In this document: piece by piece, positions 37,290 to 49,409 of the stretch
Layout of the letters: each line of letters begins with the position of its first letter
Position numbering within the stretch: the stretch's first letter is position 1
NCBI GenBank assembly: GCA_965655095.1
Contig: OZ296648.1
Coordinates: forward strand, 54,932,001 to 54,996,000
Reading direction: 5' to 3'
Length of the DNA: 64,000 nucleotides
DNA from: Haplodiscus bocki
Lineage: Eukaryota
Notes under the pieces: model-generated
The model's input: the letters and a program-made list of their open reading frames with translations, nothing else
Databases searched by the model: none
What the model was told of the DNA's origin: nothing
Program-made: the position numbers and the translations under genes

Positions 37290-38201
37290 ATGGTGAGAAA
37301 ATGCAAGACGTGTAAAAACAACATTGCTGCCTCGGAAAAAACCTATTGTTGCGTGGGCTGCAACCAGCACATGCATCTTACCACCGAATGTACAGCTCTC
37401 TCAAACGTTGCCATCAACGGAATCAAGGAACTCGGTAACAATTGCATGCTCATGTGCAACACTTGTCTTGACAATGGAGAACGAGACGTGTTCATTAGAT
37501 GCAGAGCACAAACGAAGGTCGAGTCCGTAATCTCAGACTTGAAAATCGATGAAAAGCTCTCCAATCTGGAAAACAAGTTCTCTGAACTTGTCGACTCGAA
37601 ACTTGCAAATCTAATTTCGAAGTCATGTGACAAAATTGAACAAAACTATGCTAAAGTGACAGCCAAAACGCTCGAGAAAGCTGCCTCCGTGGTAACTTCC
37701 TCAAACTCCAAAACAAAAGTCCAATCTGAAGATCTCAACATCTCAGCAAGCTTCAGAATACAAGGGATCGCTGAAGATCCCGAGAAAACTGTCGATGAGA
37801 ATCTTGTCCCAACCACCGAAAAAGTCAAAAATATCCTACAATCCTTCAATGTCAATACCGAAATCACTACAATGAAGCGACTTGGAAAATTTGACAAAAC
37901 AAGAATCAAACCAAGGACCCTTCTTGTTACGGTCCGGAATGAGTACGATAAGAAGCTAATCATGGCGAAGAGCGTTGAAAACCGCGAAGTCTTAACGGAG
38001 GAGTCCATCTACTTCCTTCCTGCATTATCAAAGGCTGACGTCATCAAAGAGAATCAAGTGCTGAAAAAGAGAAGAGAACTCCTCGATGAAGGCGTTCCTC
38101 GTGAGAAACTAAAAATTCGCAACTTTGAATTATTCAATGATGGTAAAAAGGTAGCGATGGATGCAACCGAGCTCTCCCCCAAGGAGCAAAGTCCATTTTG
38201 A
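37290..38201 (+). CDS. LINE-A ORF1 (N-terminal PHD finger, coiled coil, C-terminal RRM-like and basic region)
   Basis: MVRKCKTC...CVGCNQHMHLTTEC...MCNTC; RIQGIAE...RLGKF...PRTLLV...KLKIRNFELF; open for 303 aa. Confidence 0.88.
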   Translation: MVRKCKTCKNNIAASEKTYCCVGCNQHMHLTTECTALSNVAINGIKELGNNCMLMCNTCLDNGERDVFIRCRAQTKVESVISDLKIDEKLSNLENKFSELVDSKLANLISKSCDKIEQNYAKVTAKTLEKAASVVTSSNSKTKVQSEDLNISASFRIQGIAEDPEKTVDENLVPTTEKVKNILQSFNVNTEITTMKRLGKFDKTRIKPRTLLVTVRNEYDKKLIMAKSVENREVLTEESIYFLPALSKADVIKENQVLKKRRELLDEGVPREKLKIRNFELFNDGKKVAMDATELSPKEQSPF

Positions 38202-41046
38202 CTAGACAATGTAAGTGTACTACTTTTAAACGCTCGAAGTCTCCTAAACTACGAACGTAGACTCAAACTCAGAAACGCCATTCTTGTTCAAAAGTATAAC
38301 ATAATCTGCATCACTGAAAGCTGGCTCACTTCAGACATTAACTCGGCGGAGCTCCTCATGAGTGACTTCACCATCTATCGGGCAGACAGACCCTCTACAT
38401 CCGGCAAACCCTCTCCTCATGGTGGTGTGCTCATCGCCATCAGGAACACTTACTATTCTGAAGTCACTTTTGCCAATCTCCCCGAATGTTGCCTTCAATG
38501 CACAATAAGGATTTCAGGAGAAGACATTGTGATAAGGGTCTTCTACTCGCCCCCACATGGTAGCCCATACAGATACTCCATAGACGATTTCGTAAATCTG
38601 ATCAAGGGAAACCCCAAAAGGGAAACCAGTCATAATCTGTGGTGACATCAATTTCCCCGACACAAACTGGGAAACTCGAACCAGCACCGACTCATTCGAA
38701 CAAGCTGTGATTGACTTACTCGATGACCTAATGTATGATCAATCGATCAATTTTCCCACCTGTGGCTCGCGAACTCTTGATGTTGCCTTTTTCTCCAACT
38801 GCACCGTAACAGCTGCGGTAGACGAGAACTTCAATGAGATTTACAACTGCTCAGATCACCTTGCCATCAGACTGACAATTGAGAGACTGACTTGTTCTGA
38901 AAAGATCTTCATAGAAAACTTCAGAAGCTTCGGGTCAGCCGACTTCAGCAGCCTGCGTGACCACCTCTGCCGGAACCCATTTTCCCCCACTTGTTTTTCC
39001 AACATCGACAACACGTGCCTTGAACTATACCAACATTTTGATCGAGCCATTGACATGTTCGTCCCAACCCGGACGAGACATCGCCAGAATTTGCCCCCCT
39101 GGATAACCTCCGAATCTTCTCATCTGTTGAAGAAAATGCAAACCCAGAAAAGGTTACTAGCAGCTAAACCTACCAGCTACAGGCGGAACAAAATAGTCGA
39201 ACTAGAGAACCTAGTTTCCAAGTCATGTGAAGAAGACAGAGTTCATTACCAGGAGAAACTGTTCAACACGCGCGACACTGGTAGAATTTTCAAGCATTTA
39301 AAGTGTCTCAAAAAGACAGCCAGTCTTCCGTTATCAATGCAATTCAGAAATGAAAGAACTCAAAGTGCCTTCAGAAAAGCGGAAATGTTCAACGAATACT
39401 TCCATTCAGTCTTCGCTCCAAAGGTGGACTACAGTTTGAACAACATCCCAGTGAGCAATGTTTCCCTAACAAATTTCAGCATTTCAAAAGCCAAATTACG
39501 GAGCATTGTCTCTGATCTTGACGTAAGCAAAACGCGAGGCCCAAATGGCTATCCGCCTTCCTTCTTTGTTAATTCTGGCGAAGGTATGATTCATGCTCTT
39601 CATCTCTTGCTCAAAAACATAAAAAGATTGCGAAAGATTCCCAAATGCTGGAAGCGCGCTGTTGTTTCGCCCATTCATAAGAAAGGCGAAAAATTCCTCG
39701 TAGAAAACTATAGACCAATATCACTGCTAGATATTGACAGCAAAATTCTAGAAAAATGCATGTATTCGCCACTCTACGAGCACTTTGTTACCTCCCTGAG
39801 CTCACGCCAACATGGTTTCGTTCGCCAGAAATCGACAATAACGAACATGCTCGCCTTCCTCCAAGCTGTCTACAAAGCCCTCGATAAGGATCAACACAGT
39901 GATGTCGTAGCTTTTTACACAGATTTCAGTAAGGCTTTCGACAAAGTATCCCATTACCTTCTGTTGTGCAAAGTAGCAAGTCTAGGCGTAAATGGTTGTT
40001 TACTCGAACTTCTCCACGATTATCTTTCCGACCGAAAGCAAATTGTGCGCGTTGACAACGTCAGCTCTCGGCCAAAGGACGTAACTAGCGGTGTCCCCCA
40101 GGGGTCCCTCTTGGGACCACTTCTGTTCTGTATTTTTATAAATGACCTCCCAGAAGCCCTAGCTTTCAGCGACTCATACCTTTTTGCAGATGACCTCAAA
40201 TTTCTTTCCGTAAACCTAACAGAACTCCAAGTGCAAACCGATCTTCAATCACTTGAAAAATGGGTAAATAAGAATCGAATGGCCCTAGCAACAGACAAAT
40301 GTGCTAAACTGATATTCCGAGGGAAGGACACAATTTTCAAACTCTTCGGAGAACCCCTGAAAACCGAAGCCAACGTAAGAGATCTAGGCATTACGTTGAC
40401 CAGCGATCTCACGTGGAACATGCACATATCAAAAAAAGTAGCGAAAGCAAACGGTGTTCTCTACTTACTAAGAAGAAATGTCTCTCAATCTGCAGGTGCT
40501 CGAATCAAACTCGGACTCTATAAATCCCTAGTCTTACCCATTCTTCTCTATGGTATCCAGTGCATTCAGATGTCAAAAGCGTCAATGATCATTCTAGAAA
40601 AACTCCAGAAAAGAGCCGTTAAGTGGATATGCGGAACAGGAAAATATGGACAACAACTTCGCTTTCTGAACATTCTGCCGTTGCCTATGCACATCCAAAT
40701 TTTGAACCTGCTTACCTTGTCAAACTTTCGTACCAATTTTTGTACCAGCAACCCTACAACTGTGACTCTTTTACAGAGCCAAACTGCGCCCTCAAGAAGC
40801 AAAGAAGTCTTCAAGCTTCCCAAAACTAGAACTGAAAAAGCGAGGAACGAATTCGTGTTCAGAACTTCCCGTCTGGCAAACAGAGGAAATCAACACGCAA
40901 ACTTCGAGGAACCTGTTGGACTGAAAAGACGTCTGATCAAGCTATTTTGGAGGGTCGTGGAAGCTACCTACGACGAACTCAACTCCTGCACCTGGCTGAT
41001 TGCGTGCGACTGCCAGAACTGCAGGGAAAAGTGGACAATTTTCTAA
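38202..41046 (+). CDS. LINE-A ORF2 (AP endonuclease plus reverse transcriptase), single +1 frameshift at about 38605-38625
   Basis: LLLNARSL, CITESWL, YRADR, HGGVLIAI, YSPP, then GDINFP, TLDV, SDH. RT motifs NYRPISLL, QHGF, YTDFSKAFDKV, GVPQGSLLGPLLF, LFADD. C-terminal CTWLIACDCQNC. Confidence 0.92.
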
Positions 41047-48627: not shown

Positions 48628-49409
48628 TCAATTGTCGGTATGCGCAATTTCTTTGCCATCAATGTAGAGTTTGAGGTTACGAATCTTGAGACGTAATTTA
48701 TCGGTTCCATAATTAATAATGGTATATCTCTTGGCAAGAAGGTGTCTCTCATTTTCTTGGTCGCTTGGTGAGAGCTGGGCTAGGACTAGAATACCTTTTT
48801 TTTTGGAAAAGCTTTCTTTCAATGCTTTTGCTGACCATTCGTCTAGCGTCCCAAATGGATGAAAAATGGCATTGATAGGCCGGCGTTTCGTATCATTGAA
48901 CTTACCATTACGGTGGCAGTCAGAGACTTGTACGTTATGAAGGTTTAGTTCAGTAGCAATATCTTCTATGAATTCTTTGTCGCGAAGTTTCCGATCATTT
49001 GAAAATCTCAGGTTGTTTTCAGGCACACCCACTATTTTTACTTGGTATCGATGATTATCGGTTCGAGATAAACTTTCCCTTTGAATGTCAATTTTGGGAT
49101 CACTGCTTTTAGGCATTGTGTCTTTAGGATCGTTGAGAGATTCCTGTATGGAGCAGATTTTTTCCCTGAGCTCGAAGGATTCCGCTCGTGTTTTGTAACA
49201 AGAGTCACAGTACCAACAGGTGGTCTTGAGTGATTCCAGGACTGATAGTTGGTCTGATGTTAGGTTGACACAGGGACCATGAAACCAGACGTTGCACTTG
49301 TCACAAGCATTACCCTGGTTCACTTTTTATTGCATATGCTGCAATTGTTTTTGTAATCCTTTGCCAAAGATGTAGAGTTTATGCGGATACGGGAACCAGC
49401 TGTCGCCAT
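48628..49409 (-). pseudogene. LINE-C ORF1 (PHD finger), one frameshift
   Basis: CSIC (upstream frame)...CDKCNVWFHGPCV...WYCDSC; VKIVGVPE; RLKIRNLKLYIDG. Confidence 0.85.

Follow-up and report, generated by a model that had tools for sequence, protein, structure and literature searches.

Three long interspersed nuclear elements (LINEs) in a 64,000-nucleotide (nt) stretch of the Haplodiscus bocki genome (contig OZ296648.1, positions 54,932,001 to 54,996,000 of the forward strand; hereafter the window, in a host genome of 1.5 Gb) carry a first open reading frame (ORF1) and an endonuclease-reverse transcriptase frame (ORF2) that are joined in frame through a single TGA. We propose that programmed readthrough of this UGA very probably yields a rare ORF1-ORF2 fusion protein. 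At the junctions we observed a common frame, a conserved hexamer, no start codon for ORF2, conservation between families, repeated occurrence in separate branches and frameshift motifs in sister elements; readthrough itself is what we infer from these sequences.

An in-frame TGA joins ORF1 to ORF2 in three LINE families

An earlier note on this DNA had placed the three stops at 38199-38201 (LINE-A, + strand), 44688-44686 (LINE-B, - strand) and 48630-48628 (LINE-C, - strand), with ORF1, stop and endonuclease in one frame. Translation of all three elements bore this out, together with the statement that the endonuclease motif follows the stop in frame without a preceding ATG. The junction codons are CCA TTT TGA CTA GAC in LINE-A, CTT GAT TGA CAA ACA in LINE-B and GAC AAT TGA CTA GTA in LINE-C. 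For each family we compared the best-scoring ORF1 homologues, which were picked blind to the stop and include the window copy:

38199..38205, + strand: LINE-A junction TGA-CTAG, predicted readthrough site; TGA in 30 of 30 family loci, CTAG in 27
44680..44688, - strand: LINE-B junction, TGA-CAA-ACA in the window copy; TGA in 20 of 20 family loci, TGA-CAA-CCA (CAR-YYA) in 19
48624..48630, - strand: LINE-C junction TGA-CTAG, predicted readthrough site; TGA in 19 of 20 loci (one CGA), CTA in 17

The junction TGA is a family trait and not damage. For LINE-B the earlier reading of the context was right for the window copy but not for its family, since the ACA is private to that copy; the true context is therefore CAR-YYA, which is stronger than the window copy shows. 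We also considered a fused subfamily in which a sense codon replaces the TGA, and rejected it: the four loci concerned (L058, L071, L091 and L186) are singletons from four families.

The hexamer is kept across the LINE families of the genome

We searched the genome with the three ORF1s, two Pfam endonuclease models and two outside endonucleases. From the matches listed we chose by hand a subset that covers a range of identities and of frame lengths, so the survey is a sample rather than a full count. Clustering of its 207 distinct endonuclease starts gave 35 clusters. In 26 of them a single stop separates ORF1 from an endonuclease in the same frame; these are the 26 families counted below, after the window copy of LINE-B had been merged with its family and one cluster had been split by eye. 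The remaining nine clusters and two RTE-like families were without this junction, and had long Met-led leaders or were single-ORF elements. Four single-ORF LINEs of this genome (L112, L122, L147 and L201) have Cys-rich fingers fused in frame to the endonuclease and are open over ∼1,570 codons at most. The clade labels used here (CR1, L2, Crack, RTE and Ingi) are our assumption, assigned from motifs and not from a reference set; in trees, which hold no named reference, the families cluster with relatives from metagenomes and separately from the other groups.

Tabulating the junction across families, a check proposed in the earlier note, showed that the context is kept: the hexamer is TGACTA in 21 families, TGACAA in three, TGACCA in one and TAACTA in one. 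Loss of frame or context in the families, which would have spoken against readthrough, was not what we found, as TGA-C-N-A stands at 25 of 26 junctions compared to 3.6% of 1006 off-frame stops in eight intact ORF2s. Positions +4 (C) and +6 (A) do not vary among the 26 families. The base after the CTA or CNA is G in nine, T in seven, C in six and A in four, and beyond it the sequence is mixed. Thus, of the UGA-CUAG context stressed in the earlier note the CUA is kept (21 of 26) but the G is not (9 of 26).

Published readthrough motifs are UGA-CUA or UGA-CGG, and CAR-YYA (PMC3159437). The UGA-CUA type is that of the 21 families, and the metagenome locus L221 has TGA-CGG. The CAR-YYA context is present in families B (CAA CCA) and L (CAA CTA), behind UGA rather than the usual UAG; the third CAA family, Q (one copy), has CAA TCG and lies outside CAR-YYA.

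Could the hexamer reflect anything other than the stop itself? Endonuclease identity between families is 22-49%, and four-fold sites are ∼27% alike (20 of the families). Because four-fold sites are saturated between families, the hexamer has outlived all other silent sites. CTA makes up 227 of 1564 Leu codons (14.5%), and the distance from the stop to the first conserved Asn ranges from 8 to 22 codons, with nine different lengths of a variable linker; the low share of CTA and the position of the stop in an unconserved linker argue that the hexamer is not a Leu constraint. Nor does the junction TGA follow a general stop bias, since the eight intact ORF2s mostly end in TAA (TAA in five, TAG in one, TGA in two).

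Start codons and RNA structure at the junction

In family A, residue 4 aligns with residue 8 of L1 ORF2p (the alignment spans L1 ORF2p 8-848), and the first Met is residue 53, past the residues aligned with human L1 ORF2p N14 and E43. An in-frame ATG ahead of the first endonuclease strand was present in one of 25 families scored, which is known from a single copy; families E and V have a Met within that strand. Across the surveyed families we found neither a near-cognate start or AG common to the junctions nor a conserved AUG close to or overlapping the ORF1 stop in the ORF2 frame, of the type known from L1 and SART1. Of the alternatives that would refute readthrough, a conserved AUG or near-cognate start, a splice acceptor and ORF2 copies joined to the spliced leader (sought in families G and C) were not found.

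The earlier note had also suggested looking for a stimulatory 3' structure. None that was general appeared in local folds, long-range duplexes or silent-site windows: local fold z-scores were spread around 0 at 34 junctions, the low scores were isolated to J, O, P, T and m236 and not common to families, the mean percentile of long-range duplexes was 0.58, and extended silent-site conservation was not found. With no such structure found, the readthrough rate may be low. UAG is absent from all 26 junctions, and no UAG-G with a pseudoknot was seen (the folds do not model pseudoknots). The 2A motif D(V/I)ExNPGP is absent at the TGA junctions, and no Rfam match, SECIS included, lies within 36500-49800.

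Relatives in metagenomes carry TGA-C or frameshift motifs

We scanned metagenome contigs for relatives and analyzed the best 80 of 330 confirmed loci, whose host organisms may overlap; a scan of IMG/VR found no relative. Three of the 80 belong to families like those of this genome and have TGA-CTA. In five other loci an ORF1 of 315-535 codons shares its frame with an endonuclease that lacks a Met; each of the five stops is TGA-C (next codons CTC, CGG, CTC, CAT and CGC), and PHD was matched in four of the ORF1s. Three more loci, with TGA-CCG, TGA-CTA and TGA-CTA, have their ORF1 cut by the contig end. Two duplicate loci have an in-frame TAA, but with a 289-codon Met-led leader that bears a 2A-like motif, and the remaining 30 had no adjacent ORF1 or were too short. 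Long Met-led leaders with 2A-like motifs ahead of the endonuclease were seen in L213, L234, L248 and L287.

The other 37 loci have ORF1 out of frame and represent 32 distinct loci after five near-duplicates were dropped (L217-L290). TGA-C ends ORF1 in 2 of these 32, compared to 5 of 5 in-frame relatives (Fisher p 5e-5). All 15 loci of the +1 class have, in the overlap and no more than 15 codons from the end of ORF1, an in-frame TTT with a pyrimidine behind it. Under a strict rule, worded after the sequences had been seen, YYY-TTT-Y is present in 14 of 15 loci of the +1 class; among -1 loci it occurs in 1 of 17, and among control windows in 0.3% (n = 296). The X-XXY-YYZ heptamer is present in 12 of 16 -1 overlaps (2 expected) and 1 of 15 +1 overlaps. 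The +1 motifs are similar to UCC-UUU-CGU, the PA-X cassette of influenza, and the -1 motifs to the retroviral heptamer (PMC5009743). Structure downstream of the -1 slippery sites gave no consistent signal, and several ORF2 leaders of the overlap class do contain Met.

How are the junction types distributed? Readthrough and shift types are intermingled in a tree built from 30 of the 80 ORF2 sequences, and a grouping of 12 of the readthrough types as one clade was rejected (approximately unbiased test, AU p 4e-51). Two sister pairs, L221/L245 (63% ORF2 identity) and L252/L267 (60%), differ in their junctions, readthrough type versus +1. As a frameshift yields a fusion, the most economical interpretation for both types is that the leaky stop in the sister elements yields one as well.

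Loci L181 and L182 combine an L2-like polymerase with an ORF1 like that of the CR1-like families of this genome, at a TGA-CAA-CTA junction. Their ORF1 scores 108-153 against nine CR1-like families (shuffled maxima 41-66), and this family is likely to have arisen by a swap of ORF1 plus junction.

Readthrough and restart as possible routes to ORF2

In the mechanism that we propose, most ribosomes would release ORF1p at the UGA, while a near-cognate tRNA would decode it in roughly one to a few percent of cases and insert an amino acid. Continued translation would give a fusion of ∼1,250 amino acids (aa) in family A (303 + 1 + 947). The leak rate would set the ratio of ORF1p to ORF2p, in the manner of gag-pol recoding. 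The fusion, for which the element encodes no protease, may anchor the endonuclease and reverse transcriptase (RT) within the ORF1p particle on the RNA of the element itself. Relatives would reach the same fusion through +1 or -1 frameshifting. UGA-CUA alone gives 1.5% readthrough in human cells (PMC4132726).

The fusion by readthrough that the earlier note had put forward is supported by a frame and context kept over saturated divergence and in relatives elsewhere. We are equally confident that CR1-like LINEs have three recoding routes that can replace one another, namely readthrough, the +1 shift and the -1 shift. A wider proposal is somewhat more likely than not: two-ORF CR1-like LINEs of invertebrates would make RT only as a fusion and switch freely among UGA-C readthrough, a PA-X-like +1 shift and a classical -1 shift, like gag-pol, and the cassette of ORF1 plus junction may even be grafted onto an L2 polymerase.

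Several points weigh against readthrough. Frame alone does not separate it from a restart at the next codon. The 24 or 25 CR1-like families of this genome have a common ancestor, 7 of the 26 families are known from one copy, and among single-copy families one has TAA-CTA at the junction and one has an ATG 7 codons past the stop. The ORF2 of the L2-like family also ends in TGA-CAA, which slightly weakens specificity, and the strict +1 rule was framed with the sequences in view. A 3' stimulatory structure was not found, though PMC3159437 argues that most UGA-CUA sites have one, and in Candida Tca2 a gag/pol stop that resembled a readthrough site failed in a reporter (PMC7175516).

The alternative that survives best is termination at the TGA with an AUG-independent restart at or near the next codon, giving free ORF2p as proposed for mammalian L1. 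A restart would also keep the frame and tolerate the missing ATG, and we know of no LINE that needs a fused ORF2p. It accounts neither for the preference for TGA (25 of 26 families) nor for the termination-weakening bases that come next; neither CUA nor CAA is a near-cognate start. The 60-63% identical sisters use frameshift motifs, which give fusions, and the junctions have neither an L1-like spacer nor a SART1-like UAAUG. AUG-independent translation of L1 ORF2 is described in reviews (PMC5009743, PMC5972666), and we regard restart at these junctions as improbable. The preference of the earlier note for readthrough over L1-like reinitiation is favored by the same three features: no spacer or AUG, a TGA-C context and sisters that shift frame.

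A probable spliced leader at LINE 5' ends

The same 32-nt leader opens families B, C, G, K and L and the metagenome element L242, with unrelated upstream flanks; in families A, E and J a leader start was not seen. The leader followed by a GTAAG donor has 661 genomic copies (control 0), and the listed copies form a tandem array with ∼2 kb spacing (G000 C9 from 72.47 Mb; also L338:236-350). The fold of the unit resembles that of a spliced-leader RNA: it comprises a donor stem and a second hairpin (z -3.1), along with a U-rich stretch. The array is likely to be the spliced-leader RNA array of the host, and the LINEs that start with the leader probably copy themselves from trans-spliced RNA. In the window, a decayed leader-like copy at ∼35412-35445 (+ strand) is followed by none of the LINEs studied.

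The leader on these LINEs raised the possibility that trans-splicing frees ORF2, that is, that a separate ORF2 RNA is made by cis-splicing or by spliced-leader trans-splicing with the TGAC as branch point or the CTAG as acceptor. Besides the host array and the leader-headed families, the likeness of yTGAC to a branch point and the base ahead of the TGA, which is never G, would fit such splicing. An AG follows the CTA in only 9 of 26 families, however, at 4 nt from the A; in many families the stretch ahead of the first endonuclease strand contains no AG, and the leader end supplies no AUG. We found 68 exact copies of the leader joined to the end of family G ORF1, as against none at G's two possible acceptors ahead of the endonuclease and none at the CTAG of C (exact patterns, blind to decayed copies, in families G and C only). 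Neither joints nor a variant at the LINE-A stop appeared in the contigs placed on LINE-A from four DNA contig sets (one study, in which no listed piece bridges the stop by a 31-letter criterion). We therefore consider a separate ORF2 RNA very unlikely.

Two further explanations are just as doubtful. A hexamer with another job, as a factor site or internal promoter, with ORF2 begun at an internal or non-AUG codon, would be in keeping with two metagenome cases of TGACTCA, TGACT(C/A)A being similar to an AP-1-type site; such an element need not be the ORF1 stop in the ORF2 frame, yet it is so in 26 of 26 families with nine linker lengths, and internal Met codons fall past catalytic residues, which makes this reading hardly probable. 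That the UGA is selenocysteine, RNA-edited or reassigned in the host would suit a codon that is nearly always TGA, but the lack of a SECIS match in 36500-49800, the varying position in an unconserved linker and the eight intact ORF2s (912-970 codons), which contain no in-frame TGA and of which two terminate on TGA, leave it scarcely any likelihood.

Layout and state of the three LINEs in the window

36710..41112, + strand: LINE-A, near full length, 5' end ∼36710-36725; sister copies 97-99% identical (blastn)
37290..38201, + strand: LINE-A ORF1, 303 aa, Cys-rich PHD-like N terminus, terminal TGA
38202..41046, + strand: LINE-A ORF2 (APE endonuclease, RT), in the frame of ORF1, without a start of its own; PF14529, PF00078
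41797..45566, - strand: LINE-B, full length, decayed; four ORF2 indels; short-repeat tail near 41797
45535..45566, - strand: LINE-B spliced-leader-like exon, 32 nt, at its 5' end
44686..45498, - strand: LINE-B ORF1, 270 aa, PHD finger (E 0.0012, under the curated cut-off), terminal TGA
41871..44685, - strand: LINE-B ORF2, in pieces; sister L103 open over 942 aa, first Met at residue 237
45761..49548, - strand: LINE-C, full length, older, decayed; 91-93% identity with sister copies
49517..49548, - strand: LINE-C spliced-leader-like exon, 32 nt, at its 5' end
48628..49326, - strand: LINE-C ORF1, open part (5' part broken), PHD finger (E 2e-5), terminal TGA
45824..48627, - strand: LINE-C ORF2 in three pieces (endonuclease, linker, RT), from open frames and Pfam

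Pfam matched PF14529 and PF00078 in the ORF2 of all three elements. PHD was matched in ORF1 above the cut-off in LINE-C and family G and below it in LINE-B; LINE-A gave no match, and its ORF1 is homologous to those of B, C and G, which match PHD. The window copies are all dead, with ORF2 broken by one frameshift in LINE-A (near 38604-38608; its sister L107 is open over 947 aa), by the four indels in LINE-B and by several breaks in LINE-C. Loose ends of contigs at 36725 and 41095 lie close to the boundaries of LINE-A. Its 5' untranslated region has a private 155-nt deletion at 37059; an intron as the cause of this gap was rejected, as the segment is not GT-AG and is kept by most copies that reach there.

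LINE-B and LINE-C lie head to tail with ∼200 nt between them, and LINE-A faces both from 700 nt (41797-49548). Elsewhere in the window are the broken remains of a long terminal repeat (LTR) retrotransposon at 2952-7229 (- strand), with integrase-like and protease-like frames identified by eye, and open frames of 511, 183 and 189 codons at 11591-13126, 55334-55885 and 59983-60552 (all - strand), which have no Pfam match and are probably host exons.

Comparison with known recoding systems

How ORF2 is translated from the mRNA of a two-ORF LINE is a long-standing question (PMC3708506 calls the mechanism not clear), and the answers that have been studied give free ORF2p: reinitiation over a 63-nt spacer in L1 and UAAUG coupling in SART1 (PMC5972666), and 2A StopGo peptides in CR1, L2, Rex1, Crack and Ingi elements (PMC3708506). 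The LINEs studied here face the same second-ORF problem, but have no spacer, AUG or 2A, and their product would be fused and not free. A leaky stop that is conserved, and in sisters swapped for +1 or -1 slippery sites, suggests that a large group of LINEs normally produces ORF1-ORF2 as a fusion. Repeat annotation would be corrected accordingly, as such stops look like damage, and the finding bears on the use of CR1-like elements as insertion tools.

In the literature, no LINE turned up for which stop-codon readthrough is described (Repbase entries, subscription journals and supplements lay outside our coverage), and the available parts of PMC4120745, PMC4700185 and PMC11835228 hold nothing on it. 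The CR1-lineage LINEs with a PHD ORF1 described by Metcalfe and Casane (2014) likewise have an APE-RT ORF2, a PHD ORF1 and swapping of ORF1 between CR1 and L2 (PMC4120745); we found nothing on the mode of ORF2 translation in the available text of that paper. Recoding to reach ORF2 has been said to be needed in another APE-type group, TRE5-A and TRE3-A of Dictyostelium, by a -1 frameshift (PMC5911963). There the route is a frameshift and here readthrough, in another clade and another host kingdom.

The closest signals are viral and mammalian. Type II readthrough, known from the replicases of alphaviruses and tobraviruses and from mammalian AQP4, MAPK10, OPRK1 and OPRL1, uses the same stop and next three bases, and in alphaviruses and tobraviruses a long in-frame polymerase ORF lies behind the stop, as in these LINEs (PMC3159437, PMC4132726). 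Our elements differ in being non-LTR retrotransposons, in not keeping the G of CUAG and in having no detected 3' stem-loop. The type I CAR-YYA context of tobamoviruses is matched exactly in families B and L and not in Q, with UGA here and UAG there.

The earlier note had likened the junction to the gammaretroviral gag-pol signal, and this likeness fails, as UGA-CUA is of the alphavirus and mammalian type and not UAG-G with a pseudoknot. The strategy compares better: in gag-pol recoding (gammaretroviral readthrough, the +1 shifts of Ty1 and Ty3, the stops of Tj1 and Tca2) a structural RNA-binding protein is likewise made in bulk with the polymerase as its rare C-terminal extension, and sister lineages of retroviruses and LTR elements also switch between readthrough and frameshift (PMC5911963, PMC4700185). 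In contrast to gag-pol, the LINE fusion would come without a protease to cut it. Motifs known from viral recoding are present in these LINEs, and the proposed strategy resembles that of retroviruses.

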